Assembly (NCBI GenBank): GCA_046563655.1
Contig: CM102288.1
Location: 1 to 64,000, forward strand
DNA length: 64,000 nt
Source: Yuukianura sp. NJ FZ-2021
Taxonomy: Eukaryota
Direction of reading: 5' to 3'
The position numbers and the translations under genes are program-made. Positions 6,831 to 55,157 of the stretch are shown piece after piece. Numbering within the stretch: position 1 is the first letter of the stretch; each line of letters begins with the position of its first letter. The notes under the pieces were generated by a model that worked only from the letters and a program-made list of their open reading frames with translations, did not search any database and was not told the origin of the DNA.

Positions 6831-6930
6831 NNNNNNNNNNNNNNNNNNNNNNNNNNNNNNNNNNNNNNNNNNNNNNNNNNNNNNNNNNNNNNNNNNNNNN
6901 NNNNNNNNNNNNNNNNNNNNNNNNNNNNNN
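6831..6930. other. Assembly gap (100 N, scaffold join)
   Basis: Run of exactly 100 N between two different satellites. Confidence 0.99.
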
Positions 6931-9900
6931 TTTGGGAATTTTGTAGTTTAGATTTTAGTGTTTTAGGACTTTTAGGTTTTTCGAATTTTAGAATTTTGTA
7001 GTTTAGGATTTTTAGTGTTTTAGGACTTTAGGATTTTTCGGATTTTAGGAATTTTGCAATTTAGGATTTTAGTGTTTTAGGACTTTAGGGTTTTTGACTT
7101 TTTGGGAATTTTGTAGTGTAGATTTTAGTGTTTTAGGGATTTTAGTGTTTTCGGATTCTCGGATTTTTCGATTTGGGAATTTTTGTAGTTTTAGGATTTT
7201 AGTGTTTGTGACTTTAGGGTTTTCGAATTTTCGGATTTTGGGAATTTTGCAGTTTAGGATTTTAGTGTTTTAGGACTTTTAGGATTTTCGGAATTTAAAT
7301 TTGTTTAGGGATTTTAGTGTTTTATGTTTTAGATTTAGATTCTCGGATTTTGGGACTTTGTAGCTTAGGATTTTAGTGTGTTTTAGGACTTTAGGATTTT
7401 CGAATTTTTGGGAATTTTGTGGAAATAGGGATTTTAGTGTTTAGGACTTTAGGATTTTGGAATTTTTTGTAGTTTAGGATTTTAGTGTTTTAGGGACTTT
7501 AGGTTTTTGGATTTTGGGAATTTTGGCAATTTTGAGGACTTTTTAGGATTTTCGGATTTTTAACTTCTTGGTTTAGATTTTAGTGTTTTAGGACTTTAGG
7601 ATTTTGGGAATTTTGTAGTTTAGGATTTTTAGTGTTTTAGGAGACTTTTGTGGTTTAGGATTTAGGTGTTACTTTAGGGTTTTCGAATTTTGGGAATTTT
7701 TGCAATTTAGGATTTTGAGTAAGTTTTAGGACTTTAGGATTTTGTTTTAGGAATTTTTGTAGTTTAGGATTTTAGTGTTTTAGGACTTCAGGTTTTGAAT
7801 TTTTGGGAATTTTGGTAACAATTTAGGATTTTAGTGTTTTAGGACTTTAGGGTTTTCGGATTTTGGGTAATTTTTTGTAATTTAGGATTTTAGTGTTTTC
7901 TTAGGACCTTTAGGTTTTTCGGAATTTTGAATTTTGTAGTTTAGGATTTTAGTGTGTTTTAGGACTTTAGGATTTTGGGAATTTTTTAGGATTTTATTGT
8001 TTTTTTGCAGGATTTAGGGAATTTAGTTTAGGATTTTAGTGTTTTAGGACTTTAGGATTTTGGATTTTGAATTTTTGTAGTTTAGGATTTTAGTGTTTTA
8101 GGACTTTAGGATTTTGGGAATTTTGTAGATTTTAGTGTTTTAGGACTTTAGATTTTGGGAATTTTGAACTTTAGGATTTTAGTGTTTTAGGCCTTAAGGG
8201 TTTTCGGATTTTGGGAATTTTGAAGTTTAGGATTTTAGTGTTTTAGGACTTTAGGTTTTTCGGATTTTGGGAATTTTGTAGCTTTAGGATTTTAGTGTTT
8301 TAGGACTTTAGGATTTTGGGAATTTTGTAGTTTAGGATTTTAGTGTTTTAGGACTTTAGGATTTTGGGAATTTTGTAGTTTAGGATTTTAGTGTTTTAGG
8401 ACTTTAGGATTTTGGGAATTTTGGGAATTTTGTAGCTTAGGATTTTAGTGTTTTAGGACTTTAGGATTTTGGGAATTTTGTAGTTTAGGATTTTAGTGTT
8501 TTAGGACTTTAGGGTTTTCGAATTTTGGGAATTTTAGTTTAGGATTTTAGTGTTTTAGGACTTTAGGATTTTCGAAGAATTTTGCAGTTTAGGAATTTAG
8601 TGTTTTAGGATTTTCGGATTTTGGGAATTTTGCACTTTATTGTTTTAGGACTTTAGGATTTTGGGAATTTTGTAGTTTAGGATTTTAGTGTTTTAGGACT
8701 TTAGGATTTTGGGAATTTTGCAGTTTAGGATTTTAGTGTTTTAGGACTTTAGGATTTTGGGAATTTTGTAGTTTAGGATTTTAGTGTTTTAGGACTTTAG
8801 GGTTTTCGATTTTGGGAATTTTGTAGTTTTAGGATTTTAGTGTTTTAGGACTTTAGGATTTTGGGGAATTTTGTAGTTTAGGATTTTAGTGTTTTAGGAC
8901 TTTAGGTTTCAGATTTTAGGGAATTTTGCAATTTAGGATTTTAGTGTTTTAGGACTTTAGGATTTTGGGAATTTTGTAGTTTAGGATTTTAGTGTTTTAG
9001 GACTTTAGGGTTTTCGAATTTTGGGAATTTTGTAGTGTAGGATTTTAGTGTTTTAGGACTTTAGGATTTTGGGAATTTTGTAGTTTAGGATTTTAGTGTT
9101 TTAGGACTTTAGGGTTTTCGAATTTTGGGATTTTTGCAATTTAGGATTTTAGTGTTTTAGGACTTTAGGATTTTGGGAATTTTGTAGTTTAGGATTTTAG
9201 TGTTTTTAGGATTTTCGGATTTTGGGAATTTTGTAGTTTAGGATTTTAGTGTTTTAGGACTTTAGGATTCTTGGATTTTGGGGATTTTGTAGTTTAGGAT
9301 TTTCGGATTTTGGGAATTTTGTAGTTTAGGATTTTAGTGTTTTAGGACTTTAGGATTTTGGGAATTTTGCAGTTTAGGATTTTAGTGTTTTAGGATTTTC
9401 GGATTTTGGGAATTTTGCAGTTTAGGATTTTAGTGTTTTAGGACTTTAGAATTTCGGATTTTGGGAATTTTGTAGTTTAGGATTTTAGTGTTTTAGGACT
9501 TTAGGATTTTCGGAATTTTTTAGGGATTTTGTAGCAATTTAGGATTTTAGTGTTTTAGGACTTTAGGGTTTTCGGATTTTGGGAATTTTGTAGTTTAGGA
9601 TTTTAGTGTTTTAGGACTTTAGGGTTTTCGGATTTTGGGAATTTTGTAGTTTAGGATTTTAGTGTTTTAGGACTTTAGGATTCTCGGATTTTGGGAATTT
9701 TGTAGCTTAGGATTTTAGTGTTTTAGGACTTTAGGATTTCGAATTTTGGGATTTTCACATTTAGGATTTTAGTGTTTTTAGGACTTTAGGGTTTTCGGAA
9801 TTTTGGGAATTTTGCAATTTAGGATTTTGAGTGTTTTTTTTTAGGCCTTCAGGGTTTTCGGAATTTTGGGAATTTTGTAGCTTTAGGATTTTAGTGTTTT

Positions 9901-12900
9901 AGGACTTTAATTTTGGGAATTTTGTAGTTTAGGATTTTAGTGTTTTAGGACTTTTAGGATTTTGGGAATTTTGTAGTTTAGGATTTTAGTGTTTTAGGAC
10001 TTTAGGGTTTTCGAATTTTGGGAATTTTGCAATTTAGGATTTTAGTGTTTTAGGACTTTAGGATTTTGGGAATTTTGTAGTTTAGGATTTTAGTGTTTTA
10101 GGACTTTAGGGTTTTCGGATTTTGGGAATTTTGTAGTTTAGGATTTTAGTGTTTTAGGACTTTAGGATTTTGGGAATTTTGTAGTTTAGGATTTTAGTGT
10201 TTTGGACTTTAGGATTTTCGGATTTTGGGAATTTTGCAATTTAGGATTTTAGTGTTTTAGGACTTTAGGATTTTAGGGATTTTGTAGTTTAGGATTTTAG
10301 TGTTTTAGGAGTTTAGGAATTTTGCAATTTAGGATTTTAGTGGTTTAGGACTTTAGGGTTTTCGGATTTTGGGAATTTTGTAGTGTAGGATTTTAGTGTT
10401 TTAGGACTTTAGGGTTTTCGGAATTTTGGGAATTTTGCAATTTAGGATTTTATTGTTTTAGGACTTTAGTATTTTCGGATTTTGGGAATTTTGCAGTTTA
10501 GGATTTTAGTGTTTTAGGACTTTAGGGTTTTCGGATTTTGGGAATTTTGTAGTTTAGGATTTTAGTGTTTTAGGACTTTAGGATTTTCGGATTTTGGGAA
10601 TTTTGCAGTTTAGGATTTTAGTGTTTTAGGACTTTAGGGTTTTCGGATTTTGGGAATTTTGTAGTTTAGGATTTTAGTGTTTTAGGACTTTAGGATTTTG
10701 GGAATTTTGTAGTTTAGGATTTTAGTGTTTTAGGACTTTAGGATTTTGGGAATTTTGTAGTTTAGGATTTTAGTGTTTTAGGACTTTAGGGTTTTCGAAT
10801 TTTGGGAATTTTGCAATTTAGGATTTTAGTGTTTTAGGACTTTAGGATTTTGGGAATTTTGTAGTTTAGGATTTTAGTGTTTTAGGACTTTAGGAATTTT
10901 GCAATTTAGGATTTTAGTGGTTTAGGACTTTAGGGTTTTCGGATTTTGGGAATTTTGTAGTGTAGGATTTTAGTGTTTTAGGACTTTAGGATTTTCTGAT
11001 TTTGGGAATTTTGCAGTTTAGGAGTTTAGTGTTTTAGGACTTTAGTATTTTCGGATTTTGGGAATTTTGCAGTTTAGGATTTTAGTGTTTTAGGACTTTA
11101 GGGTTTTCGGATTTTGGGAATTTTGTAGTTTAGGATTTTAGTGGTTTAGGACTTTAGGATTTTGGGAATTTTGTAGTTTAGGATTTTAGTGTTTTAGGAC
11201 TTTAGGATTTTGGGAATTTTGGGAATTTTGCAATTTAGGATTTTAGTGTTTTAGGACTTTAGGATTTTGGGAATTTTGTAGTTTAGGATTTTAGTGTTTT
11301 AGGACTTTAGGATTTTCGGATTTTAGGGATTTTCCAATTTAGGATTTTAATGTTTTAGGACTTTAGGATTTTCGGATTTTAGGGATTTTCCAATTTAGGA
11401 TTTTAGTGTTTTAGGACTTTAGGATTTTCGGATTTTGGGAATTTTGCAGTTTAGGATTTTAGTGTTTTAGGACTTTAGGATTTTGGGAATTTTGTAGTTT
11501 AGGATTTTAGTGGTTTAGGACTTTAGGATTTTCGGATTTTGGGAATTTTGTAGTTTAGGATTTTAGTGTTTTAGGACTTTAGGATTTTAGGGATTTTGTA
11601 GTTTAGGATTTTAGTGTTTTAGGAGTTTAGGAATTTTGCAATTTAGGATTTTAGTGGTTTAGGACTTTAGGGTTTTCGGATTTTGGGAATTTTGCAATTT
11701 AGGATTTTAGTGTTTTAGGACTTTAGGGTTTTCGGATTTTGGGAATTTTGTAGTTTAGGATTTTAGTGTTTTAGGACTTTAGGGTTTTCAATTTTGGGAA
11801 TTTTGTAGTTTAGGATTTTAGTGTTTTAGGACTTTAGAATTTCGGATTTTGGGAATTTTGTAGTGTAGGATTTTAGTGTTTTAGGACTTTAGGATTTTCG
11901 GATTTTGGGAATTTTGCAGTTTAGGATTTTAGTGTTTTAGGACTTTAGGGTTTTCGAATTTTGGGAATTTTGTAGTTTAGGATTTTAGTGTTTTAGGACT
12001 TTAGTATTTTCGGATTTTGGGAATTTTGCAGTTTAGGAGTTTAGTGTTTTAGGAGGGTTTTCGGATTTTGGGAATTTTGCAATTTAGGATTTTAGTGTTT
12101 TAGGACTTTAGGATTCTCGGATTTTGGGAATTTTGTAGTTTAGGATTTTAGTGTTTTAGGACTTTAGGGTTTTCGGATTTTGGGAATTTTGTAGTTTAGG
12201 ATTTTAGTGTTTTAGGACTTTAGGGTTTTCGGATTTTGGGAATTTTGTAGTTTAGGATTTTAGTGTTTTAGGACTTTAGGATTTTCGGATTTTGGGAATT
12301 TTCCAATTTTGGATTTTAGTGTTTTAGGACTTTAGGATTTTCGGATTTTGGGAATTTTGCAGTTTAGGATTTTAGTGTTTTAGGATTTTCGGATTTTGGG
12401 AATTTTGCAGTTTAGGATTTTAGTGTTTTAGGACTTTAGAATTTCGGATTTTGGGAATTTTGTAGTTTAGGATTTTAGTGTTTTAGGACTTTAGGATTTT
12501 CGGATTTTGGGAATTTTGTAGTTTAGGATTTTAGTGTTTTAGGACTTTAGGATTTTCGGATTTTGGGAATTTTGTAGTTTAGGATTTTAGTGTTTTAGGA
12601 CTTTAGGATTTTAGGGATTTTGCAGTTTAGGATTTTAGTGTTTTTGGACTTTAGGATTTTCGGATTTTGGGAATTTTGCAGTTTAGGATTTTAGTGTTTT
12701 AGGACTTTAGGATTTTCGAATTTTGGGAATTTTGTAGCTTAGGATTTTAGTGTTTTAGGACTTTAGGGTTTTCGAATTTTGGGAATTTTGCAATTTAGGA
12801 TTTTAGTGTTTTAGGACTTTAGGATTTTGGGAATTTTGTAGTTTTAGTGTTTTAGGACTTTAGGGTTTTCGAATTTTGGGAATTTTGCAATTTAGGATTT

Positions 12901-14940
12901 TAGTGTTTTAGGACTTTAGGATTTTGGGAATTTTGTAGTTTAGGATTTTAGTGTTTTAGGACTTTAGGATTCTCGGATTTTGGGAATTTTGTAGCTTAGG
13001 ATTTTAGTGTTTTAGGACTTTAGGATTTTGGGAATTTTGTAGTTTAGGATTTTAGTCTTTTAAGACTTTTTTCGAATTTTGGGAATTTTGCAATTTAGGA
13101 TTTTAGTGTTTTAGGACTTTAGGATTTTGGGAATTTTGTAGTTTAGGATTTTAGTGTTTTAGGACTTTAGGGTTTTCGAATTTTGGGAATTTTGCAATTT
13201 AGGATTTTAGTGTTTTCGGACTTTAGGGTTTTCGGATTTTGGGAATTTTGTAGTTTAGGATTTTAGTGTTTTAGGACTTTAGGGTTTTCGAATTTTGGGA
13301 ATTTTGCAGTTTAGGATTTTAGTGTTTTAGGACTTTCGGATTTTGGGAATTTTGTAGTTTAGGATTTTAGTGTTTTAGGACTTTAGAATTTCGGATTTTA
13401 GGGATTTTGTAGTTTAGGATTTTCGGATTTTGGGAATTTTGTAGTTTAGGATTTTAGTGTTTTAGGATTTTCGGATTTTGGGAATTTTGCAGTTTAGGAT
13501 TTTAGTGTTTTAGGATTTTCGGATTTTGGGAATTTTGCAGTTTAGGATTTTAGTGTTTTAGGATTTTCGGATTTTGGGAATTTTGCAGTTTAGGATTTTA
13601 GTGTTTTAGGACTTTAGAATTTCGGATTTTGGGAATTTTGTAGTTTAGGATTTTAGTGTTTTAGGACTTTAGGATTTTGGGAATTTTGTAGTTTAGGATT
13701 TTAGTGTTTTAGGACTTTAGGGTTTTCGAATTTTGGGAATTTTGCAATTTAGGATTTTAGTGTTTTAGGACTTTAGGATTTTGGGAATTTTGTAGTTTAG
13801 GATTTTAGTGTTTTAGGACTTTAGGGTTTTCGAATTTTGGGAATTTTGCAATTTAGGATTTTAGTGTTTTAGGACTTTAGGGTTTTCGGATTTTGGGAAT
13901 TTTGTAGTTTAGGATTTTAGTGTTTTAGGCCTTCAGGGTTTTCGGATTTTGGGAATTTTGTAGTTTAGGATTTTAGTGTTTTAGGACTTTAGGTTTTTCG
14001 GATTTTGGGAATTTTGTAGTTTAGGATTTTAGTGTTTTAGGACTTTAGGATTTTGGGAATTTTGTAGTTTAGGATTTTAGTGTTTTAGGACTTTAGGATT
14101 TTCGGATTTTAGGGATTTTGCAAGTTAGGATTTTAGTGTTTCAGGACTTTAGGGTTTTCGGATTTTGGGAATTTTGTAGTTTAGGATTTTAGTGTTTTAG
14201 GACTTTAGGATTTTCGGATTTTAGGGATTTTGCAATTTAGGATTTTAGTGTTTTAGGACTTTAGGGTTTTCGGATTTTGGGAATTTTGTAGTGTAGGATT
14301 TTAGTGTTTTAGGACTTTAGGATTCTCGGATTTTGGGAATTTTGCAGTTTAGGATTTTAGTGTTTTAGGACTTTAGGATTTTCGGATTTTGGGAATTTTG
14401 CAGTTTAGGATTTTAGTGTTTTAGGACTTTAGGATTTTCGGATTTTGGGAATTTTGCAGTTTAGGATTTTAGTGTTTTAGGACTTTAGGATTCTCGGATT
14501 TTGGGAATTTTGTAGCTTAGGATTTTAGTGTTTTAGGACTTTAGGATTTTGGGAATTTTGTAGTTTAGGATTTTAGTGTTTTAGGACTTTAGGGTTTTCG
14601 AATTTTGGGAATTTTGCAATTTAGGATTTTAGTGTTTTAGGACTTTAGGGTTTTCGAATTTTGGGAATTTTGCAATTTAGGATTTTAGTGTTTTAGGACT
14701 TTAGGGTTTTCGGATTTTGGGAATTTTGTAGTTTAGGATTTTAGTGTTTTAGTGTTTTAGGACTTTCGGATTTTGGGAATTTTGCAGTTTAGGATTTTAG
14801 TGTTTTAGGACTTTAGGGTTTTCGGATTTTGGGAATTTTGTAGTGTAGGATTTTAGTGTTTTAGGACTTTAGGATTTTCGGATTTTAGGACTTTGGGATT
14901 TTATGACTTTGATTTGGGACTTCATGATTTTGGTAATTTG
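6931..14940 (+). repeat. Telomere-like complex satellite, left array: 48/56-bp units built from ~8-bp TTTTAGGA-like subunits
   Basis: Unit ttttgggaa-ttttgtag-tttagga-ttttagtg-ttttagga-ctttagga-[ttttcgga]. The + strand is G/T-rich and almost C-free, with many TTAGG. The sequence is noisy near the gap. Confidence 0.97.
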
Positions 14941-15626: not shown

Positions 15627-18050
15627 TTACTTTTCGGAAGCTTTCGTCGACTTTTTCTTTTTTTGGGTTTTAGCCGTTTCCTTACTCACGCTGCTTGATT
15701 TTTTTCTTTTCTCGTTACCTTTTTTTTTCTCGTCTGGTGCACTAGGACACGGCATCGGCACATTTGATGTGAGTTTTGAAGACACGACAGCTTTCCCTTT
15801 TGCTGGCACCTCCGATCCAGTCTTTGGCATACGTGAACCTTTTGGGTTATCCCTTTGTTGCAGTGGTACGGAACACTTGAGGCCTATGCTGCCCAGTCTG
15901 TCTATAAACTTGACGAAACTATAGCTCGAATAGATGCTACTGTAAAAAAAACACTTGTTATTGCAACGTTTAAAAGAATTCAAAAATCTATCAATGGTCT
16001 TACAACATCAGTAGTCTTATAAAATTGGCTTCATCGCCAGATCGGATGACGTTTGGTTTAATGATATTCAGCAAAATGTCTTCCTCATTGGCAACACTAG
16101 GACTTCTAAAATATAAAAAATCAGTTGGTGTAACAATATATTTAACATTACACATGTACTTGTACATTACCCAATGAAGTTGTAGATGATTTGTACCACT
16201 CTGAAATTATTAAACTCACAGTAAAATCACCTTATTACTTATAATACTTTTACTATTATACAATTTTACTATAATAGGTACTTAATACTTACATAGTTAG
16301 AAATCAATCAAATCACAAATTTAAAAGCAATACCTATGAATGTTTCCAGCAATTAGTTGCATCTCCCGCATATCAGATGACTTGTGCGCCTTCACGGAGT
16401 TGTACATGTTGCAGTAAGCCTCAGCTTGGTCAGTAGTGAAAACAATGTCATCTATTTGGAACATATTAATACTTTAAACAGCAACGTCAACAACAAAAGC
16501 AAAAATGTGGTTGAGTTACCAATTTCTTTGCGGTCATTGATTACGGCTTGCGGTTGGTTGCTTGGTAAGACGTCATTTTCATCCGACCTAAAACGTAAAA
16601 AAAAGTGAAATGTGTTCATATTCATACAAAAGGGACAAGTTTTGTGCTTCAAAAGCATACGTTTTGTGTTAATTTAAGTAAGATGTTGCTCACATTTCTA
16701 TGGAAGATGTAAGTCCTTCTTTTGTTTGCAATTCGGTAAGGACTCCAAACCCTTCACTGGCATATGGCATTTCCTTGTTACCCTTTCCTGCTGGTTCTTC
16801 ACATTTTTTGGCCTCATTAGGCGAAGTATACTCATTAGAAGAAGTATTATCCACACTTTCCTCTGCTACATTCAGGCATTGAATTTCTTCAGGTTTCTTT
16901 GCTTGCAGCATCAAGATGGCTGGCTGTACTGTAGCAATACCTTAAAAAAATTTGCGCAACGGTATTATTAAGAAAGCAGCAATTTATCAGTTTATTAAAG
17001 TCTTACCTTCTTGATCTTTGGATGGACAATAAACTTTTCCAGATTCCTTGGCTGAATTACTTTGTGCCGCCTCTTCTTCAGGGTATGAGATTACTGGATC
17101 ATTTCCAATTAGTTTTGCACCCATGGTTAAAAATGGCCTACCATGTGCTCCAACGATGGACGAATATCTGTCTTTACAGTCGATTGCTGTTCGGCTCCCA
17201 TTCTAAAAATAAAAACGCAAAAAGAAGAATTCCAGAAATTCAAATGGATAAATCATAAATTAGAGGCAAGTAATACCTACCGTGACTAATGAAAATTTCT
17301 GCCAGAAGTCAAATGTCATGGGATCAGCTTCAGGCCTTTTCTCAGCAAAGGTAATAAGCTGACCAATTTCAGATGGCAACCAATTCATGGCGGTTTTGAC
17401 CCTTGGATTGTTATACTCCGATGAAACTAAACTCAAAAAGAATACCCTTGAACAATAGTAAACGCAAAATTTAAATTTCTAACTAGCTTTGTAGCGCGAC
17501 CACTCAATCCAACCGCCAAAACGCAACTGACATTGGACAGCCAAAAACCCCTGGTTATACTGAATGTAGATTTTGGCAATCATGCTTAATTCATTTGATT
17601 CAGCTTTATACTGAATTCAGCTTAATTCAACTTTCGTACAACTTTATGGAATGTTATACATTTTTCAACTTTATATAGTTTTACCCGCTTGGTCAGTACG
17701 ATGCAATTGGCTAGGTAAGTTAAATATTCGTTCTTTGTCACCATCCCAGTAGTTCCATGAAGAAGTGCTTGAACGCCAAGTTGCTTGAGACACTACCACA
17801 CAACTGTATCTATCGCGGCAGCTTCTAGCAGTATGGCGTCCGTGCTAAAAAAAAATTACAATTCAGTATACAAACAGTATAACATAGCGTAATATGTTAA
17901 TGAACTTACCACAACCGCAGAAAATTTATCCCAAAACTCGATACACATAGGGTCACCTCGAGTTGTATTCTTTGCAAATTCAATAAGTTGACCAACTTCC
18001 CCTGGAAGCCAATGCTTTCGTCGAAAACAATTTGTTACACTTTTCTCCAT
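15627..18050 (-). CDS. Island gene A: ~10-exon protein with two Myb/SANT repeats, conserved unknown domain X and a basic K-rich tail
   Basis: Manual GT-AG splicing keeps frame. Myb1 WLPGEVGQLIEFAKNTTRGDPMCIEFWDKFSAVV|HGRHTARSCRDRY (intron 17909-17845); Myb2 WLPSEIGQLITFAEKRPEADPMTFDFWQKFSLVT|NGSRTAIDCKDRY (intron 17280-17203). Further exons run to the stop at 15627. One internal exon (~17605-17485) is uncertain. Confidence 0.75.
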
Positions 18051-18217
18051 ATTGTAATAAAATCTTTTTTAAGTAAATACAAAATTGAGCTGAAGTTTAA
18101 TTAATTGAACTACTCTCTGTCACAACCAAAAGACAACTAAAAATAACTAATAGTATATACAAAGCTGTGTAATTAAAACTTATGCAGAGAAGCCTATGGT
18201 TGATAAAAAAAAGTGGT

Positions 18218-20523
18218 TCAAAACACAGGAAATGGTTCCTGAAATAATATACTGTATTCGTCGGATTGATTCCTCGTCGCGTCATCAATTTCTTGAAATA
18301 ACTGCGCAATTAAGTGTTGTAACTTAATGGACGATCTCTGACTGGTGGTTAACTTTTCTACTGACCGCTGCAGTATAACTTCTACTTTTGCAGCTAAAAC
18401 TGATTCGTCAAACAGTCCATCCAGGTCCTCCACAAAACTGCTAATAACCTTAACCCAAATAGGAACTGCTCGCTCAACACTGATTAACGTAAGACAACTA
18501 TATGGTAAGACTACAATACAATTCTTCCCAAGTTCGCCGTAGTTGAAGCACACAAAGTCAAGCCATTTGAATCCGCAATACTCCAACTCAAGAGCTAGTG
18601 AATGGTCCCATGCATCAGCTAAACTGAAAGCTTGCGTCACATTCTTACTTTCTTGGAGTATCCAAACGATGGAGCTTGTACTTTGCAAAAGAAGTTTAGC
18701 AGCTTCATACCCACTTCCAATTGTTATGTTTTGACATTGACGTGTAGATCGATGTGTCAATGAGACATTTGTAGTTGGCATGTCTTTTCCGATCAAATGG
18801 TAAATGGTGCTAGCCAAAATAAAATCGGCAACTGCTTTTGCGGCGGAATGCAGTTTTCCACGTTGTTTTAAGTCACTAAATAAGTCTCCAAATGTATAAG
18901 GGCTTTTCTGGTTCAATTTCATATTTTTCAAATAAACTGGAAAAAATTCGCTAGGTCCAGTGAAACATATTCTTCTGTTCTCTTCCTTCAAGACATGTGA
19001 ACTTGCCCGAAAAATATATTCCGATCGACTATATGATTCTCTAAAAAAAGGCGGCAAAACTTGCAATATACGAAGTAAGGAATTCTCGTGTGTTGGAAAT
19101 CCTTGTTGTGGCTTAAATCTTGCGGTTCCTCTGAGCATGAAACAAATAATTGCCTCGCACGCCAACAGCGTTTTGTACTTTTCAATGGATAAAGTAAATG
19201 TTGTGTTTGTTTCAATCGCTTTCTTTGCCGTTTCGAGTTCTTCATAAATTGTATCTAAGCAACAGCCAACAGTTTGATCCATCAACACGTGAATTCGCAA
19301 TGAGGAGAATTGCTGGACCAACTTAATTGGATTGATGTATTCAACAATGGAATCACATAGGCGTCGAACATCTTCCAATGTTTCATGTACTGTATCACGA
19401 ATAGGAGCGTTGACAATTAACTCACATCTTGCATATTGTTCTTCCGTTGTAATATTCTCAATTAAACCCCGCACACAGTGTACGTCTTCCATGCAAGAAG
19501 TCAATGTTGACTGAAGTCTGTTTTCTGCATTGTCGAAAACGGAAAGTTCCAAAAGTCGTTTGGAAATAATTGGTTCAGTAAATGGTACGTTGGTTTGACT
19601 GCTAATGTATTTTGCAAGTGATGAGTAAAATTTGATCTTCCTGAGATGTGTGCTTCCACAAATTGGGATTGGAGTGTCTTTTTTTGATTCGAACGTGAAA
19701 TTGCCAAAACCGGGGATTCCACATACATAGTACTCGTAAAAATACAAGTTCTTCGTCTGGATTGTTTCAAGTATTGAATTTCTGTTCCACAGAAGTGTTT
19801 TGCCGTTTTCAGCACGTATATCATATGCTACGTGGATAATAATTTCGCAAACGTCTTCTGTCGATGAAATAAATGATAGAAGGGACATCATCCGTTCAAT
19901 AGGCGCACTCTGTCCGAATCTACACAAGACAAAAATGGGTTCATGTATGGATAATCGCTTGTCGAGATACTGGTGAAATACATCGCCAAACACTTTAATG
20001 TCTTCGAGGAATATGATAAATGGGTTGGCTGTGAAAACGTCTTTACACCGGAGTTGATTATAACGGATGAAGGTATTTGAATTTCTCATCTAAAATTAAA
20101 ATAAATTGTCATATTTAAATGTTGACTTAGTTCGATCAAGGATATTTTAAACACTACTACAAATTGCTCTATTAAAAAATAATCAAACGCTACATAGCCA
20201 TGACGACAAGTACTACTTACAGTTGGATCATTTATCGCCTCGTAAATCGCCGTGTAAGTTTCGCTCAATGTATAACGGAAGGTAAGCCGTCTGTCACTTC
20301 GGAGAACCAGATTTAACTCCAGCCCTGAATACTCAGCCAACCTAATTCTTGTCAGTACAGGACTCGAAGCAATTAAAGATCCCTTAACCCAAGATGAAGG
20401 AGGATTATCGCACTCGAGTCGATGATGTAATTTCATGCCATTAAGTGAAAGTAGTGGTAGACACTTCCATGAGTTTGTAGTAATGACAATTCCGTCGAAG
20501 TTGACATCTGTAATTAGTGACAA
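18218..20523 (-). CDS. Island gene B: ~750-aa uncharacterised protein, possibly a Rep_trans/MOBT-like tyrosine nickase
   Basis: A 623-aa open frame (18218-20089) plus a 145-aa upstream ORF, joined either by a short phase-0 intron or by an ATGA overlap. Motifs DVNFDG, RFGQ, IHVAYD, LLW, GFGNF, KFYSSLAK, ARCELIV. The 5' end is unresolved and the function is inferred. Confidence 0.7.
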
Positions 20524-21131
20524 ATTGTTAGGGTTAGGAAAATTTGAATGTAAAATGTTCTGATTAAATGTTCTGAATCAAAACTCCTGACCACTCTGGT
20601 TAGCTTGTGAAATGCAAAATACAAAAATAACCCCAAAGCAAATTAAATATAATACCCATGTTTGTATGTTGATGTCGAGTTACTTGGAATCTATTATGAA
20701 TGATACGGATAGGTTAGACCAGTATTTTGAAATCCTGTAGCTGTAAAACAGAAGGAGTTTAGAGATAACAGCTAAGGAATTCTAAGGATTGTACTTTATT
20801 TACTAAACTTACCATTACACAGCTTCAGAAACGCTACAGAATAGACAGTGCTTCCGCTCTGATATTAAGCTGAGTTGAAACTGATAAATTATCAGTAATA
20901 AATAATTATTGTACTAAAAAACGTAGCCTTCATATGAACGAACAAGTTCAAATTGGTTTAATGACAAAGGATGTTGTTTTTTGGCACAGCGAAGACTCAA
21001 ATAGTACTCACATCCGGAAGATACTGCACCAGTTCACATTAAATGCACCTGATTTTTTCAACTTTTCAAGTGTGCAGTAAAAGAAAAATGGCGAAACAAA
21101 GAAGAAATCCAATATCATGAGCACTTTCATT

Positions 21132-21537
21132 AGACACTTAGGCGAGCTGTTGTTAGCTTTAGGATTTAGCTTTATGATTTAAGAAATTAACGCTAAGTTA
21201 TAAACTTTAACGACGATAGTTAGGCTAATCAAGTTTTAATTTTCAATAGCATTAAGTTTTAGTGAGGTCACGTGTTAAAGTGGGTGGTGAGAGAGCGGGT
21301 GGAAGTCCTATGTCCACAGCAAGAATTTCAAACTCTGGGGGAGCGCGCCAATCGGATGTTTCAAAAAGTAGGAGTGGCTTCAAAACTAAAGCTGCCTTAT
21401 CTCTGTCTTTAATTTTTGAAATTTTAACGACAGATTTAGCTTTATGTCTTTAGATTTAAGAAAAGGGGAGGAGTCGAGTTAAAATTTAAAAAACTATTCA
21501 CTAAAGCTAACGCTAACGACAGCTCGCCTAAGTGTCT
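21132..21537. mobile_element. MITE with terminal inverted repeats, possibly PIF/Harbinger-type
   Basis: TIR agacacttaggcgagctgt / acagctcgcctaagtgtct, flanked by a 3-bp direct repeat ATT (21129-21131, 21538-21540). A TA target-site reading is also possible. Confidence 0.8.
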
Positions 21538-21921
21538 ATTAACTCAAGTTAAACAATTTTAAAATTAGTGCAAGTGTATTACACAACCTGACACAATAGA
21601 GGGAACAGACACAAGATGCTTCTGGGTCAAAAGTTAAACAGAGACTCGCGGTGAAGCACAAGACTCCGCATCCAAATCCATGAGAAGCTTGGACTTGGCG
21701 TCACACTCTTTTTTGTGATTAAACAACATGCCTCTTGATGTCTTAGAAAAGCAACACTTGACAGTGTAAAAACAAGTAAATAAAAAACAATATGACATGT
21801 TACTTAAGGTTGTTTAACTTTTGAAATAATTTTGATTTTATTAATGATTTTGAGTATGCATATTGCATATGGGGTAATTTTGAAATAAAACGCTCAAATA
21901 CTTATAGTATAGGTTACAATT

Positions 21922-24900
21922 TTATGCTTGGTTCTGTAAGTCAAACTCTACAAAAATCTTGACATTTTTCTTCGTAGAAGTTCCAACAAATGCAAGCAGT
22001 AGCCGTTCTACATTACCACAATCCGATTCTTCAAACTCAATGTAAGCGTTGGTGGCCTCATTTTGTTTTAAACTAAACATATTATTAGAACAGAAGGACG
22101 GTTTCAGTTTTAAGAAGCCGTAACATTCCTCTTCCCGCATTGGATTATCAACAAGGCAAACATCCATTTTTTCATTAAAATGATTTTCAAAAACTAAAAG
22201 TATTTTGTTCTTGCGGGTGGGATTTGGGATTAAAAGCAAAATTTCAGCTTCAGTTGCACCACATTTGAGGTAAACCACCGACGTAAGGTAATCCTTATAC
22301 AACTGGAATTCCAATAGGAGTATATCCGGCATGTTGCTGATCAGTACCGCTTTCTTGGTTTGAATATGATGCTCAATTTCTTGAATTTTCTGAAAAAAGA
22401 AATTACGGTAAAAAATTTATGTTACTTATGCCCAGTTCGTCCATTGCAGGTTAAATTTTAACGGAATTTAAATATTTAACCGGAGATTAAAAAATTTAAC
22501 TGGAGAAAATCGGCCGGTTAAATTTAACCGGACTTTAACCGGCGGAGGAATACAAGAATTTTGATACCTTGTATGCCAAGATTAATTGACGCATAATTAA
22601 GTTAATTGAGTTTAAAGGTGGAACTAGTTTGCACTAAACTCCGTTTAACTTTAACTTGCAATGGTCGAACTGGCCATTAAAGTTTAACTTAGTTGTTGTA
22701 CTTACAAGTTTGAGCAAAACAACTTCGGATAACGCCCAAGCCGGATTAAAAAAAACAATTTTTCTCGACTTCGTTTCTTTGTTGCAAATGCGATTTCCGA
22801 CAACCACATCGCCTACAGAGATTAAGGACCTCAAAGTAGCCCCAAAATCTACCACAATTTGTCGCAATAGTTGAGCTGTCCTTGTGATTTCATAAACAGA
22901 GACGAACGTTTCTGATTCCGACAAAATTGAGTTAACGCTGATCTAGCAACAACAAATTTAGAACAAAATGTACAAGATACCTAATACAGTACCAATACAT
23001 TGTAGTGTAATTATAAACACTATTATCAACTCACAAATACCAACTCAGTAACATCTACAACTTTTCCAGTCAACGTGGATAAAATTCCTGACGCCATGTC
23101 CAGCACGGTAGAAATTTTTTGTACTGCGCTGCCGTTTCGGTGTATGCCATATGCTCGCATCAAATCACAAACGCAGATCCGTCCAATATAATCCTGGAAG
23201 AAATGTGTCAAGGTAGACATAAAAGTTAAAATATTGAGTTTCGCCGTAAAAGTAAAATGTTTTGCAAATTACCATTGTTGACACGCAGTTAGCTGGTAAT
23301 TCTTCATCTAGAACCTCTGACTGTGCGTCAATCAAAGAATTAGTCGACGACTTTGTACTTTCCGACACAGTTGGAGCACATGTTGATTCCAGTTCCACTG
23401 CCGGCTTATTAGACAACTGTGTAGTTTCTGGTACACCGGCATCATGTGAGGTTTCGAATTCCACCGGCGGGTTAGTAGACAACTGTGTAGTTTGTGGTAC
23501 ACCGGCATCATGTGCGGTTACAAATTCCACCGGCGGGTTAGTAGACAACTGTGTAGTTTGTGGTACACCGGCATCATGTGCGGTTACAAATTCCACCGGC
23601 GGGTTCGTAGGCGACTGTGTAGTTTCTGGTACACTTTCGTCATGTGCGGTTTCAACTTCCAAACTGTTGGATTCATTTCTAGATGACGGTTGTTCGTTAA
23701 TTGAATTAGATTGCAAAACTGATTGCGACGTTGGACCAATTGACACTGATGATGCGTTTGTTGATGATCCTTGTAAAAGTTGAGTTTGTTGGATAGAGCC
23801 TAGCTTGAAGCCAATGCTGGCAAACTTTTCCACAAATCGAACGTTGTTGCAGCTGGCGTAAATGTTGCTGAAAAACAATACAACTTAGAGATTATACATT
23901 ATACAAAAAAATATGTACAAAAACACCTTACAACATTAGTAGCTTCATCAAATTGGCCCTGTCTCCAGTTGAAGTTCCTGGTATTAAAATTGCTTCCAAC
24001 TTTTTTTCTGGAGCACAATCGTCGTTGAATCTATAATTGCAAAGACAATTACAGCTGAATGTCTCACAACTAATATCATCAGCAGATATAGGTTAGATTA
24101 CCCGAGCATAGTGTAGACAATGTGTACGACTCTATAACAAAAAAGTATTTCCATCGTATTGAATTTTGTTACGAACGAAACCTATAGATTATAATCATAA
24201 AATGTACAACATACTTGTCAATATGGGTTGCTATTAAACGGATGTCGTTGAGATTAGAATCCTTATGCGATATCACCCTCCTGTACATATCCACGTATTT
24301 ATTGCAAGTTGCCAAATTGCATTTGAAAGATGCAGCTTGATCTGAAATTTGAGTTAATAGAAAATAAAATTACGTTTAAAAGAAAATGTCACAAATTGAA
24401 CACAATAGTAAACTGGCGTACCAGATGGGCTTTCAGAATCTGCATTGTTATGCAATGACAAAGAATTTTGAATACTTTGTCCTTCAGATGGAGTTGCAAT
24501 TTTTATTCCAGATGTAGGAATTTGAGACACTGTGTTGTCAGTCAATGCCACAGAGGGTTGAACAGTTGGAGGTTCAGATGTGTGCCCAATGTGCACGATA
24601 TCCTCAGAGATGCGTACTCTTTTCCGTTTTTTTTGTACTAGGTTCGTGGTAGTTCTGGTCATATTCGGTGAACTGTTTGTACGCGCTGTTATCTCTGCTA
24701 AGGCATCCTCGTCTGGAATAAGTTGGATGTAAAAATCTTTTAGACAGTCGTATATTTTAAGATTATTATTATATTACTATTCGAATAATATTACCATCGT
24801 CACTGTCAAAATATTGCTTTTTTGAATTTTCAATGGAGCTGAAAGAGCCTACTATTGAGCCAGGTGTACTTTCATTAATAGCAGAATGTGGAGTTGCTGA

Positions 24901-27880: not shown

Positions 27881-28429
27881 CAAAAGACTAAACAATATTA
27901 TAGTCCTGACAAAGAATATTGAGCCGGCTTTTGTGGTTTGAGAGTAAGACATTGAAATTACTTCTTACTACTCACTAATTGTGGAACCAATTTCTTTTAT
28001 AAAGATTTTCATTTTGGGAATTTTGCTCTTTAGGCTTGTATTTTGGCTTTCCTAACTTTTGCTCTTTAGGTTTTTAAACGAGCTAACTTTTTCTTATAAA
28101 TTTTGCTTCCTTATGTTTAATTTTGCTCTTAAAAGTTAGTGTTTTAGGATTTTCAGCATTTTGGGAAGCTCAGGAGTGTTTCCCTCGATCAAACAGCAAT
28201 TTTGGACTGCCCGACTGCACATTTTTATACTTCAAATTATACGGATTTTGGGAATTACTTGCTGCGAACTAGGTTTGATGCAGTGTCCAAACAGTACTTA
28301 CTGAAACAATTTTGCTTACTTAATTTTTTGTTTTAGGACAGGATTTGGGAATTTCCTCTTTAGGTTTTTTAGTGTTTTAGACAAAGAGAATTTTGCTCTT
28401 AGTTTTAGGATTTTCGGCTTTTGGGAGCT

Positions 28430-31400
28430 CAGGTTTTTAGTGTTTTAGGATTTTGGGAATTTTGTAGTTTAGGATTTTAGTGTTTTAGGACTTTAGGGTT
28501 TTCGGATTTTGGGAATTTTGTAGTTTAGGATTTTAGTGTTTTAGGACTTTAGGATTTTGGGAATTTTGTAGTTTAGGATTTTAGTGTTTTAGGACTTTAG
28601 GGTTTTCGAATTTTGGGATTTTTGCAATTTAGGATTTTAGTGTTTTAGGACTTTAGGGTTTTCGGATTTTGGGAATTTTGTAGTTTAGGATTTTAGTGTT
28701 TTAGGACTTTAGGATTTTGGGAATTTTGTAGTTTAGGATTTTAGTGTTTTAGGACTTTAGGGTTTTCGAATTTTGGGAATTTTGCAATTTAGGATTTTAG
28801 TGTTTTAGGACTTTAGGATTTTGGGAATTTTGTAGTTTAGGATTTTAGTGTTTTAGGACTTTAGGATTTTGGGAATTTTGTAGTTTAGGATTTTAGTGTT
28901 TTAGGACTTTAGGATTCTCGGATTTTGGGAATTTTGTAGCTTAGGATTTTAGTGTTTTAGGACTTTAGGGTTTTCGGATTTTGGGAATTTTGTAGTGTAG
29001 GATTTTAGTGTTTTAGGACTTTAGGATTCTCGGATTTTGGGAATTTTGCAGTTTAGGATTTTAGTGTTTTAGGACTTTAGGATTTTCGGATTTTGGGAAT
29101 TTTGCAGTTTAGGATTTTAGTGTTTTAGGACTTTAGGATTTTCGGATTTTGGGAATTTTGCAATTTAGGATTTTAGTGTTTTAGGACTTTAGGATTTTGG
29201 GAATTTTGTAGTTTAGGATTTTAGTGTTTTAGGACTTTAGGATTCTCGGATTTTGGGAATTTTGTAGCTTAGGATTTTAGTGTTTTAGGACTTTAGGGTT
29301 TTCGGATTTTGGGAATTTTGTAGTTTAGGATTTTAGTGTTTTAGGACTTTAGGATTTTGGGAATTTTGTAGTTTAGGATTTTAGTGTTTTAGGACTTTAG
29401 GGTTTTCGGATTTTAGGGATTTTGCAATTTAGGATTTTAGTGTTTTAGGCCTTCAGGGTTTTCGGATTTTGGGAATTTTGTAGTTTAGGATTTTAGTGTT
29501 TTAGGACTTTAGGGTTTTCGGATTTTGGGAATTTTGTAGTTTAGGATTTTAGTGTTTTAGGACTTTAGGATTTTGGGAATTTTGTAGTTTAGGATTTTAG
29601 TGTTTTAGGACTTTAGGATTCTCGGATTTTGGGAATTTTGTAGCTTAGGATTTTAGTGTTTTAGGACTTTAGGATTTTGGGAATTTTGTAGTTTAGGATT
29701 TTAGTGTTTTAGGACTTTAGGGTTTTCGAATTTTGGGAATTTTGCAATTTAGGATTTTAGTGTTTTAGGACTTTAGGATTTTGGGAATTTTGTAGTTTGG
29801 GATTTTAGTGTTTTAGGACTTTAGGGTTTTCGAATTTTGGGAATTTTGCAATTTAGGATTTTAGTGTTTTAGGACTTTAGGGTTTTCGGATTTTAGGGAT
29901 TTTGCAATTTAGGATTTTAGTGTTTTAGGCCTTCAGGGTTTTCGGATTTTGGGAATTTTGTAGTTTAGGATTTTAGTGTTTTAGGACTTTAGGTTTTTCG
30001 GATTTTGGGAATTTTGTAGTTTAGGATTTTAGTGTTTTAGGACTTTAGGATTTTCGGATTTTAGGGATTTTGCAATTTAGGATTTTAGTGTTTTAGGACT
30101 TTAGGGTTTTCGGATTTTGGGAATTTTGTAGTGTAGGATTTTAGTGTTTTAGGACTTTAGGATTCTCGGATTTTGGGAATTTTGCAGTTTAGGATTTTAG
30201 TGTTTTAGGACTTTAGGATTTTCGAATTTTGGGAATTTTGTAGCTTAGGATTTTAGTGTTTTAGGACTTTAGGATTTTGGGAATTTTGTAGTTTAGGATT
30301 TTAGTGTTTTAGGACTTTAGGGTTTTCGAATTTTGGGAATTTTGCAATTTAGGATTTTAGTGTTTTAGGACTTTAGGATTTTGGGAATTTTGTAGTTTAG
30401 GATTTTAGTGTTTTAGGACTTTAGGGTTTTCGAATTTTGGGAATTTTGCAATTTAGGATTTTAGTGTTTTAGGACTTTAGGATTTTGGGAATTTTGTAGT
30501 TTAGGATTTTAGTGTTTTAGGACTTTAGGGTTTTCGAATTTTGGGAATTTTGCAATTTAGGATTTTAGTGTTTTAGGACTTTAGGATTTTGGGAATTTTG
30601 TAGTTTAGGATTTTAGTGTTTTAGGACTTTAGGGTTTTCGAATTTTGGGAATTTTGCAATTTAGGATTTTAGTGTTTTAGGACTTTAGGATTTTGGGAAT
30701 TTTGTAGTTTAGGATTTTAGTGTTTTTGGACTTTAGGATTCTCGGATTTTGGGAATTTTGTAGCTTAGGATTTTAGTGTTTTAGGACTTTAGGATTTTGG
30801 GAATTTTGTAGTTTAGGATTTTAGTGTTTTAGGACTTTAGGGTTTTCGAATTTTGGGAATTTTGCAATTTAGGATTTTAGTGTTTTAGGACTTTAGGATT
30901 TTGGGAATTTTGTAGTTTAGGATTTTAGTGTTTTAGGACTTTAGGGTTTTCGAATTTTGGGAATTTTGCAATTTAGGATTTTAGTGTTTTAGGACTTTAG
31001 GGTTTTCGGATTTTAGGGATTTTGCAATTTAGGATTTTAGTGTTTTAGGCCTTCAGGGTTTTCGGATTTTGGGAATTTTGTAGTTTAGGATTTTAGTGTT
31101 TTAGGACTTTAGGGTTTTCGGATTTTGGGAATTTTGTAGTTTAGGATTTTAGTGTTTTAGGACTTTAGGATTTTGGGAATTTTGTAGTTTAGGATTTTAG
31201 TGTTTTAGGACTTTAGGGTTTTCGAATTTTGGGAATTTTGCAATTTAGGATTTTAGTGTTTTAGGACTTTAGGGTTTTCGGATTTTGGGAATTTTGTAGT
31301 TTAGGATTTTAGTGTTTTAGGACTTTAGGGTTTTCGAATTTTGGGAATTTTGCAATTTAGGATTTTAGTGTTTTAGGACTTTAGGATTTTGGGAATTTTG

Positions 31401-33877
31401 TAGTTTAGGATTTTAGTGTTTTAGGACTTTAGGATTCTCGGATTTTGGGAATTTTGTAGCTTAGGATTTTAGTGTTTTAGGACTTTAGGGTTTTCGGATT
31501 TTGGGAATTTTGTAGTGTAGGATTTTAGTGTTTTAGGACTTTAGGATTCTCGGATTTTGGGAATTTTGCAGTTTAGGATTTTAGTGTTTTAGGACTTTAG
31601 GATTTTCGGATTTTGGGAATTTTGCAGTTTAGGATTTTAGTGTTTTAGGACTTTAGGATTTTCGGATTTTGGGAATTTTGCAGTTTAGGATTTTAGTGTT
31701 TTAGGACTTTAGGATTCTCGGATTTTGGGAATTTTGTAGCTTAGGATTTTAGTGTTTTAGGACTTTAGGATTTTGGGAATTTTGTAGTTTAGGATTTTAG
31801 TGTTTTAGGACTTTAGGGTTTTCGAATTTTGGGAATTTTGCAATTTAGGATTTTAGTGTTTTAGGACTTTAGGATTTTGGGAATTTTGTAGTTTAGGATT
31901 TTAGTGTTTTAGGACTTTAGGGTTTTCGAATTTTGGGAATTTTGCAATTTAGGATTTTAGTGTTTTAGGACTTTAGGGTTTTCGAATTTTGGGAATTTTG
32001 TAGCTTAGGATTTTAGTGTTTTAGGACTTTAGGATTTTGGGAATTTTGTAGTTTAGGATTTTAGTGTTTTAGGACTTTAGGATTTTGGGAATTTTGTAGT
32101 TTAGGATTTTAGTGTTTTAGGACTTTAGGATTTTCGGATTTTAGGGATTTTGCAATTTAGGATTTTAGTGTTTTAGGACTTTAGGGTTTTCGGATTTTGG
32201 GAATTTTGTAGTGTAGGATTTTAGTGTTTTAGGACTTTAGGATTCTCGGATTTTGGGAATTTTGCAGTTTAGGATTTTAGTGTTTTAGGACTTTAGGATT
32301 TTCGGATTTTGGGAATTTTGCAGTTTAGGATTTTAGTGTTTTAGGACTTTAGGATTTTCGGATTTTAGGGATTTTGCAATTTAGGATTTTAGTGTTTCAG
32401 GACTTTAGGGTTTTCGGATTTTGGGAATTTTGTAGTTTAGGATTTTAGTGTTTTAGGACTTTAGGATTTTCGGATTTTAGGGATTTTGCAATTTAGGATT
32501 TTAGTGTTTTAGGACTTTAGGGTTTTCGGATTTTGGGAATTTTGTAGTGTAGGATTTTAGTGTTTTAGGACTTTAGGATTCTCGGATTTTGGGAATTTTG
32601 CAGTTTAGGATTTTAGTGTTTTAGGACTTTAGGATTTTCGGATTTTGGGAATTTTGCTCTTTAGTGTTTTAGTGTTTTAGGATTTTCGGATTTTGGGAAT
32701 TTTGCTCTTTAGGTTTTTAGTGTTTTAGGATTTTCGGATTTTGGGAATTTTGCTCTTTAGTGTTTTAGTGTTTTAGGATTTTCGGATTTTGGGAATTTTG
32801 CTCTTTAGTGTTTTAGTGTTTTAGGATTTTCGGATTTTGGGAATTTTGCTCTTTAGGTTTTTAGTGTTTTAGGGTTTTCGGATTTTGGGAATTTTGCTGT
32901 TTAGGTTTTTAGTGTTTTAGGGTTTTCGGATTTTGGGAATTTTGCTGTTTAGGTTTTTAGTGTTTTAGGGTTTTCGGATTTTGGGAATTTTGCTGTTTAG
33001 GTTTTTAGTGTTTTAGGGTTTTCGGATTTTGGGAATTTTGCTGTTTAGGTTTTTAGTGTTTTAGGGTTTTCGGATTTTGGGAATTTTGCTGTTTAGGTTT
33101 TTAGTGTTTTAGGATTTTCGGATTTTGGGAATTTTGCTCTTTAGGTTTTTAGTGTTTTAGGATTTTCGGATTTTGGGAATTTTGCTCTTTAGGTTTTTAG
33201 TGTTTTAGGATTTTCGGATTTTGGGAATTTTGCTCTTTAGGTTTTTAGTGTTTTAGGATTTTCGGATTTTGGGAATTTTGCTCTTTAGGTTTTTAGTGTT
33301 TTAGGATTTTCGGATTTTGGGAATTTTGCTCTTTAGGTTTTTAGTGTTTTAGGATTTTCGGATTTTGGGAATTTTGCTCTTTAGGTTTTTAGTGTTTTAG
33401 GATTTTCGGATGTTGGAAATTTTGCTCTTTAGGTTTTTAGTGTTTTAGGATTTTCGGATGTTGGAAATTTTGCTCTTTAGTGTTTTAGGGTTTTCGGATT
33501 TTGGGAATTTTGCTCTTTAGGTTTTTAGTGTTTTAGGATTTTCGGATTTTGGGAATTTTGCTCCTTCGTGTTTTAGGACTTTAGGATTTTTCGGACTTTG
33601 GGAATTTTGCTCCTTCGTGTTTTAGGACTTTAGGATTTTCGGACTTTGGGAATTTTGCTCCTTCGTGTTTTAGGACTTTAGGATTTTCGGACTTTGGGAA
33701 TTTTGCTCCGTGTTTTAGGACTTTAGGATTTTCGGATTAGGTTTTTAGTGTTTTAGGATTTTCGGACTTTGGGAATTTTGCTCCTTCGTGTTTTAGGACT
33801 TTAGGATTTTCGGATTTTGGGAATTTTGCTCTTTAGGTTTTTAGTGTTTTATGATTTTGGGAATTTGGGAATTTTGC
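28430..33877 (+). repeat. Telomere-like complex satellite, right array (same family and orientation as the left array)
   Basis: Same 48/56-bp units and shared rare variants. It switches to gctct/gctgt/gctccttcg variants from ~32650. Confidence 0.97.
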
Positions 33878-54892: not shown

Positions 54893-55157
54893 CAGATATA
54901 GCGATAACCCCGGGAAATCGCCCTCGCAGATCTACAACAGATATGGCGATAACCCCGGGAAATCGCCTTAGCAGATCTACAACAGATATGGCGATAACCC
55001 CGGGAAATCGCCTTAGCAGATCTATAACAGATATGGCGATAACCCCGGGAAATCGCCCTAGCAGATCTATAACAGATATGGCGATAACCCCGGGAAATCG
55101 CGCTAGCAGATCTATAACAGATATGGCGATAACCCCGGGAAATCCCCCTCGCAGATC
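54893..55157. repeat. 45-bp tandem repeat (~6 copies), homologous to the 42-bp satellite
   Basis: Unit gggaaatcgccttagcagatctacaacagatatggcgataacccc aligns with the reverse complement of the 42-mer (agagatcggcagcgcagatccaacgaatgtaatgaaaaccct). Confidence 0.9.

Follow-up and report, generated by a model that had tools for sequence, protein, structure and literature searches.

Gene B, a predicted gene on the minus strand of the 64,000-nucleotide (nt) window analyzed here (positions 1-64,000 of the forward strand of contig CM102288.1, assembly GCA_046563655.1), is a real, intact, single-copy animal gene, and its protein belongs to a rare, very divergent family that is undescribed in the libraries searched. 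Our best reading, to which we give about an even chance, is that it encodes a metal-dependent tyrosine nickase of the Rep_trans type. We favor this Rep_trans-like reading because residues picked by eye from one sequence proved invariant across the family, because the order of motifs and strands and the class of the predicted fold agree with those of Rep_trans, and because a helicase domain is lacking in both.

We regard the gene as real because a frame at 18218-20089 (minus strand) stays open for 623 codons (chance per frame of 7.6e-20, calculated from the base composition of the surrounding island), because its protein has 35 relatives, and because a family hidden Markov model (HMM) matches both the long frame and an upstream exon. 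A first-pass annotation, made from the sequence alone, had described this open reading frame (ORF) as intact, and it is. The relatives are those that an exhaustive phmmer search, run against 1.84 billion cluster representatives, returned with E values of 0.001 or less; the best has an E value of 1.1e-53, two lie at 1e-30 or better and 10 at 1e-10 or better. Their identity to the gene B protein is 18-28%, and most pairs within the family share 20-35%. The gene B protein matched no family in Pfam, PHROGs or NCBIfam, and no Pfam domain was found in the 35 relatives. Word-index protein searches with the gene B protein and with the family alignment gave no match, the family profile found nothing better than E 0.6 among the sequences of solved structures (PDB), and no encoding loci were recovered from IMG/VR viral contigs scanned with three subfamily alignments or from JGI metagenomes scanned with one alignment and one protein. 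In a subfamily of five of the 36 alignment rows (P0011, P0013, P0020, P0026, and P0032) an inserted CC-x(11)-C-x-x-C segment, perhaps a zinc knuckle, separates the N-terminal module from the core.

Gene B is predicted to have three exons and a 720-residue product, a length comparable to that of the longest relatives (685-735 residues), with the 623-codon frame as its last exon. The start codon of the long frame and the stop codon of the upstream frame overlap in the sequence ATGA, and TTTAATTTTAG stands immediately before the ATG. Right after the residues ...AINDPT, 131 nt upstream of the long frame, there is a GTAAGT, and the two frames are joined in phase 0 once this 131-nt stretch is taken out. 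Intron 2, which thus restores the frame between the two ORFs, is placed at 20090-20220 (minus strand; GTAAGT...TTTAATTTTAG). The upstream frame is read as an N-terminal exon because the family HMM matches it, because 24 relatives have N-termini that align with it from end to end, and because the parts corresponding to exons 2 and 3 form one continuous frame in those 24 proteins. The HMM matches the exon 2 frame at 7.7e-10 (profile positions 5-108) and the long frame at 3.6e-156, the latter carrying on from profile position 100. Exon 2 (20221-20507, minus strand) encodes the N-terminal module in 96 codons, including a split one. The first-pass annotation had noted the motif DVNFDG in this upstream frame, where it indeed occupies residues 24-29 of the stop-to-stop frame at 20086-20577. 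As that frame has no ATG before DVNFDG, we place a first intron of 148 nt (GTATTA...TTACAG) at 20508-20655 (minus strand); the acceptor at 20508 gives the reading M-D-V-N-F-D-G, which resembles the short N-termini of relatives. Exon 1 would then end, on a reading of the sequence, at 20656-20659 (minus strand) with the ATG and a G, the first base of codon 2, followed by the donor GTATTA. With one well-supported intron of 131 nt and one inferred intron of 148 nt, the earlier description of the gene as nearly intronless holds. Exon 3 (18218-20089, minus strand; TGA stop at 18218-18220), supported by ORF reading, homologue search and an AlphaFold model, encodes linker helices, a β-sheet core (residues ∼79-262), a helical region and a C-terminal α/β region. 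A candidate polyadenylation signal, ATTAAA, is found 117 nt past the stop (18096-18101, minus strand). Close behind lies a minus-strand frame at 17908-18050, with its ATG at 18050, ∼170 nt past the gene B stop; it ends at a GTAAGT, has no Pfam match and looks like the first exon of a tightly packed downstream gene.

The family alignment has 36 rows, one of which (P0004) is a C-terminal fragment, so counts for the core refer to 35 rows. Eight residues of the long frame are invariant in all 35: G59, Q60, H86, D90, N130, Y155, R221, and E223. A88, K160, and F170 are each conserved in 34 of 35 rows, and K153 in 33, with Arg in the other two. The Asp-Gly pair of the exon 2 module (20491-20496) is likewise invariant, in all 24 relatives that align there and in 25/25 when the gene B exon is counted, in the context F-D-G-I-V-I. 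G59-Q60 (19910-19915, minus strand, as are all the motifs here) forms an invariant pair preceding helix 64-72. H86-V-A88-Y-D90 (19820-19834) follows on strand 82-92, and G129-N130-F-T-F (19691-19705; consensus GNFYF) on strand 128-135, where G129 is conserved in 31/35 rows and position 132 is Tyr in 23/35. K153-F-Y155-S-S-L-A-K160 (19610-19633) places the candidate nucleophile Tyr at the end of strand 149-156, and R221-C-E223 (19421-19429) lies on strand 219-229. Two semi-conserved residues, H163 (His in 28/35 rows) and R164 (Arg in 19/35), have been lost in gene B, which has Ser-Ser instead.

These columns bear directly on the first-pass annotation, which had located H86-V-A-Y-D90, Y155xxxxK160 (here Y155-S-S-L-A-K160), and R221-C-E223 in the ORF and proposed to judge the reading by the invariance of D90, Y155, R221, and E223 among homologs. 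The motifs are where it placed them, and the four residues are invariant in 35/35 rows. Every residue that had been picked by eye from the single sequence, with Rep_trans as template, falls in one of the 12 invariant or near-invariant columns of the ORF or in the invariant Asp-Gly. The lack of conservation that was to count against the proposal was therefore not found, since the by-eye residues proved invariant or nearly so.

AlphaFold run on the gene B protein alone gave a useless model (predicted local distance difference test, pLDDT, of 38). AlphaFold2 supplied with the 36-row alignment gave a pLDDT of 88.7 and a predicted template modeling score (pTM) of 0.89. In this model the putative catalytic core is a curved antiparallel β-sheet of the TBP-like or helix-grip class. 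Strand 82-92 (H86, A88, and D90) is followed by strands 97-102 and 115-120, which bear none of the named residues, then by strand 128-135 (N130) and strand 149-156 (K153 and Y155). Helices spanning 160-212, which include K160, lead to strand 219-229 (R221 and E223), and helices and a short strand without named residues continue up to residue 293. The complete sheet would consist, we infer, of two modules, the N-terminal module of exon 2 and ORF residues ∼79-262; a comparison of the N-terminal module with the core by hhalign gave no support for an internal duplication (P 0.13). VIA-align, run against 48,161 representative chains and Foldseek's best 884, matched helix-grip and TBP-like proteins to residues 79-261 and, in the remaining rows, helical bundles to residues 155-322.

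According to the structural account of Rep_trans (PMC4797284), these proteins have a 10-stranded crescent sheet in which two five-strand modules are connected in TBP-like fashion. The central strand is strand 1; it bears D46, which together with D142 and E214 forms the set of metal ligands, and strands 6 (R140, D142, A144, and D146), 9 (T176, Y178, and G180), 10 (R189, Y191, and K193), and 11 (R212 and E214) are adjacent. A TBP-like fold class for Rep_trans is also reported in PMC13107129. The family (PF02486) includes RepC, RepD, and RepDE of the pT181 family, RepSTK1, and the MOBT relaxases NicK and RelSt3. The 13 Rep_trans proteins that we used for comparison (pT181 RepC and 12 further proteins) read TRLDLAFD, ETKYFG, RIYNK, and WRVE, with F-D near the N-terminus. 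Members of the gene B family present [I/L]-D-G, [V/I]-x-H-x-A-x-D, G-N-F-Y-F, K-F-Y-S, and A-R-x-E in the same order and in the same alternate-residue register. In the model, as in the published description of Rep_trans, the motifs all lie on β-strands, two strands separate the first two core motifs (compare Rep_trans strands 7 and 8), and the fold belongs to the TBP-like class. H86-x-A88-x-D90 is the proposed counterpart of D142-x-A144-x-D146 on strand 6, on the basis of conservation and the model, and N130 and its neighbors are a possible counterpart of T176-x-Y178 on strand 9, on conservation. Y155, a candidate for the nucleophile, has Lys or Arg at position −2 in 35/35 rows, which compares with R189-x-Y191 in the R-x-Y-x-K context of Rep_trans (motif III, YxxK), and R221-x-E223, found on strand 219-229 in 35/35 rows, corresponds to R212-x-E214 on strand 11. 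No Walker A motif was found in the 36 rows, and the family, like Rep_trans, is without a helicase domain; bacterial Rep_trans proteins borrow a host helicase, according to the same structural account (PMC4797284).

Against this stand several departures from Rep_trans at the motifs and a set of kinship tests without significant outcome. The first-pass annotation had itself pointed to a His in place of an Asp and to a non-canonical spacing, and both are confirmed: His replaces the metal ligand D142, and 68 residues separate the Tyr from the R-x-E motif in gene B versus 23 in RepC. The greater distance arises because a helical insertion of ∼45 residues lies between the Tyr and R-x-E strands. R140 has no counterpart (Val or Ile at residue 84), so that of R-x-D-x-A-x-D only the Ala and the last Asp are kept, and K193 has none either (Ser or Asn at 156), a conserved Lys being found nearby at +5 (K160). 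The gene B protein is acidic (isoelectric point 6.1 versus a median of ∼8.5 for family segments), charge analysis was neutral in outcome, and no origin-like hairpin or substrate for gene B was identified. Pfam searches of all 36 rows with a cut-off of E 10 gave no match to PF02486, Phage_CRI or DUF7845, and PF02486 was also unmatched in the gene B protein (E up to 1) and in the 35 relatives (E up to 0.01). The PF02486 profile does recover RepC and NicK-like ORFs from bacterial records, which served as the positive control. Alignment of the family to the 13-protein Rep_trans profile by hhalign gave P 0.23 for full profiles and P 0.37 for cores, with AR.E.I against wR.E..L as the best, non-significant local match of the cores. 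A Rep_trans HMM did not distinguish the 35 real cores from reversed sequences (p 0.15), and the family HMM did not rank Rep_trans ORFs above neighboring decoy ORFs (p 0.96).

Structural comparison, which had been suggested as a check of the Rep_trans assignment, gave no significant match either. Foldseek searches of PDB and BFVD returned nothing at E up to 0.001, and no Rep_trans chain appears among the Foldseek and VIA-align matches listed; structural scores were middling and shared with SRPBCC and CYTH proteins. The AlphaFold2 model was built without the N-terminal module.

We also compared the family profile (637 columns) with the Rep_trans profile (333 columns) by an unsupervised procedure that seeks the best collinear chain of ungapped blocks. 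The three pairs that carry the chain do not change between widths of 5, 7, and 9, and each is in catalytic register: HvA.D with DLAfD (H86/A88/D90 to D142/A144/D146), KFY with RIY (K153/Y155 to R189/Y191), and R.E with RvE (R221/E223 to R212/E214). The pairing of N130/Y132 with T176/Y178 is weak, ranking 6th of 1715 block pairs with a low score, and that of the exon 2 Asp-Gly with D46 ranks 5th to 9th of 23,220, also with a low score. Against kinship, the score of the chain is only marginal: at width 7, with three blocks, it was reached by 3 of 300 full column shuffles and by 19, 20, and 36 of 500 shuffles that preserve the clustering of conserved columns, and at widths 5 and 9 it was reached by 42 and 61 of 300 shuffles. 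The proposal that gene B is a Rep_trans/MOBT-like enzyme stands in part. Its invariant residues, a strand order that follows strands 6, 9, 10, and 11, and the fold class speak for it, whereas no profile, HMM or structure match was significant. Kinship with Rep_trans is plausible and unproven; sequence by itself does not establish it, and membership of the family is not demonstrated.

If gene B is such a nickase, the invariant polar residues on successive strands (the Asp of Asp-Gly, H86/D90, N130, K153/Y155, and R221/E223) would reproduce the active-site constellation of Rep_trans/MOBT enzymes. By analogy, in the most likely mechanism the N-terminal Asp, H86 (in place of D142), and E223 would coordinate a divalent metal, which would activate the phosphodiester. 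Y155 would attack this phosphodiester to give a covalent 5'-phosphotyrosyl-DNA link with release of a 3'-OH, the transition state being stabilized by K153, K160, and R221, and the C-terminal part of ∼330 residues may recognize the substrate.

Other enzymes are built on similar curved sheets, and a CYTH/triphosphate-tunnel-like phosphohydrolase or an SRPBCC-type enzyme would account for the same matches. The conserved His, Asp, Lys, Tyr, Arg, and Glu would then line a pocket for a nucleotide, an RNA end or a small molecule, and no tyrosyl-DNA chemistry would occur. We consider this unlikely, while giving it real weight. CYTH proteins, the triphosphate tunnel metalloenzymes, carry ExExK on the first strand and form an eight-strand tunnel, and neither feature was found in the gene B protein.

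It is improbable, in our judgment, that gene B encodes a non-catalytic protein, such as a ligand-binding START-like module or a structural protein, in which the invariant residues serve folding or binding. The helix-grip matches are to ligand-binding proteins, and gene B has lost the semi-conserved H163 and R164, both of which would suit such a role. However, the invariant positions besides G59 are polar and of catalytic type (Q60, H86, D90, N130, Y155, R221, and E223), and they have persisted although the relatives are only 18-28% identical to the gene B protein, a pattern typical of active sites. Helix-grip proteins mostly bind ligands in a hydrophobic cavity, and they are not known to have an invariant Tyr/His/Asp/Arg/Glu constellation on the sheet. 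The SRPBCC, START, Bet v 1, and PYR/PYL helix-grip proteins and the "TBP-like protein" BDI_3606 (4jhy) have 3-11% identity to gene B in the alignments and show no sequence similarity to it.

Gene B lies within a 13.5-kb low-GC island (14.9-28.4 kb) that has on each side an array of the same 56-nt G/T-rich satellite (6947-14903 and 28403-33874), both in one orientation, and the first-pass annotation had cast it as the catalytic transposition or replication enzyme of this island. We find no support for that role. The island as a mobile or self-replicating element, with gene B as a transposase or replication initiator acting on the satellite, is a very improbable reading. The presence of the same satellite in the same orientation on both flanks is compatible with it and, speculatively, rolling-circle chemistry could amplify tandem repeats if gene B is a nickase. 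Yet the sequencing depth of gene B (∼58-61, from contigs of one DNA run) equals that of unique flanking sequence, and the gene has two introns of the spliceosomal type. There are no convincing terminal repeats, the only long-range inverted repeat in the island being weak (27 nt, 74% complementary), and on either side of the island the satellite decays by degrees into unique sequence, so that neither a sharp junction nor a target duplication is seen. The family profile found no second copy of gene B in the window, the protein has no helicase motif, and Pfam searches of 28 neighboring island frames and the upstream exon frame gave sub-threshold matches only. Short contigs at a depth of 5.8-10.3 (versus ∼58-73) are ∼87-91% identical to the stretch at 19420-20748, which covers the 5' half of the gene, the intron and the upstream region; this low-depth version may come from a diverged allele, from a paralogue or from a second genotype. 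In this genome, gene B looks like a host or domesticated gene rather than a part of an active element.

Weakest of the alternatives, and in our view hardly credible, is that these proteins are remote RAI1/DXO-like nucleases of the PD-(D/E)XK type with RNA 5' ends as substrate, a reading suggested by a protein-language-model search with the relative P0007, in which RAI1/decapping nuclease, eIF3d, and NARG2_C were the nearest named clusters (scores 0.89-0.84), but opposed by scores below the 0.9 bar, by 158 shared features versus the 170 typical of true family members, by the failure of PF08652 to match a single one of the 36 rows even with the E cut-off set to 10, by the absence of DXO or Rai1 chains among the Foldseek and VIA-align matches listed, and by the absence, among the invariant columns, of the D...ExK spacing of this fold.

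The window as a whole comes from an animal genome, and its frames at 36-64 kb carry TGF_beta, CNOT1_HEAT, PMT, and aldehyde-dehydrogenase domains. The 56-nt satellite arrays that border the island are built from TTTAGG-like 8-mers and have a GC content of ∼0.31 and a GC skew of ∼+0.7. A 42-nt satellite with a 126-nt higher-order period (72 copies, 95-97% matches) occupies 3357-6811, generates spurious long open frames on both strands, and is followed by a related 40-nt repeat and then by a 100-N assembly gap (N run 6831-6930). Two further tandem arrays, one at 54891-55158 (45-nt unit, 6 copies) and one at 55599-58330 (59-nt unit, 177-nt higher-order period, ∼46 copies, 94-97% matches), sit in a very AT-rich stretch. 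Within the island, an element at 21131-21538 that resembles a miniature inverted-repeat transposable element has 32-nt terminal inverted repeats (94% complementary, 344 nt apart) and a depth of 170-390 versus ∼60; several diverged contigs map there and one skips 21190-21452. The segment at 22336-22500 is very highly repeated, with a summed contig depth of ∼13,350 versus ∼60 in its flanks, and is overlapped by a 20-nt tandem repeat at 22451-22506. The first residues of a 164-residue minus-strand frame at 21925-22416 match the EB1 C-terminal motif below threshold (E 0.0032, 18.2 bits, cut-off 27). Another frame, at 23168-23884 (minus strand), contains four 66-nt (22-residue) tandem coding repeats that are rich in Pro, Thr, and Glu, and it matches no Pfam family. 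Rfam and tRNA scans of the window gave no matches.

Two unrelated enzyme folds are known that start rolling-circle replication, and the HUH fold is found in all three domains of life. Rep_trans enzymes were considered purely bacterial until 2026, when a distant archaeal family joined them (PMC13107129). Our searches of the literature on Rep_trans in eukaryotes and on eukaryotic transposons found no report that links Rep_trans to a eukaryotic element. We put at a little short of even the chance that gene B and its 35 relatives are the first eukaryotic branch of the TBP-fold (Rep_trans/Rep-Arvir) tyrosine-nickase superfamily, with His for one metal-binding Asp and a large added C-terminal region, fixed here as a single-copy, intron-bearing gene. 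Were this so, the distribution of the Rep_trans fold would be completed across the three domains of life, and the family would point either to eukaryotic rolling-circle elements or viruses of a still undiscovered class, from which the initiator was domesticated, or to a host DNA-processing enzyme of the bacterial-plasmid type. Gene B offers named candidate catalytic residues that are open to direct testing and, even if the Rep_trans reading fails, it represents a conserved and confidently modeled family that has no entry in Pfam, PHROGs, or NCBIfam.

Among known systems, a precedent is Rep-Arvir (DUF7845, PF25227), the archaeal rolling-circle initiators, for which a Foldseek search of PDB likewise missed RepDE (PMC13107129). 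The BFVD entry A0A345MNV4, which according to the same source linked Rep-Arvir to Rep_trans, appears for gene B at rank 47 with an E value of 1.3. Gene B differs from Rep-Arvir in having no PF25227 match and in the context of its Tyr (KHYYM in Rep-Arvir). Unlike gene B, Rep-Arvir is archaeal and borne by viruses or plasmids; it is further described as having a central winged helix-turn-helix domain (PMC13107129). In eukaryotes, tyrosine-dependent nicking of DNA with a bound metal is known from the HUH Reps of Helitrons and Replitrons (PMC10288648). An HUH endonuclease was considered for gene B itself and rejected, as H86 is followed by Val-Ala with no His-hydrophobic-His motif and no Pfam Rep family matches any of the 36 rows. 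The Helitron and Replitron Reps would be the functional analogue of gene B if the tyrosine-nickase reading is right; gene B differs from them in its fold class, in having no fused helicase, and in its non-repetitive copy number. Set beside Rep_trans itself, with proteins of 300-400 residues, gene B has a product of ∼720 residues with a large C-terminal region, and, unlike Rep_trans, it is a eukaryotic, intron-bearing, single-copy gene.

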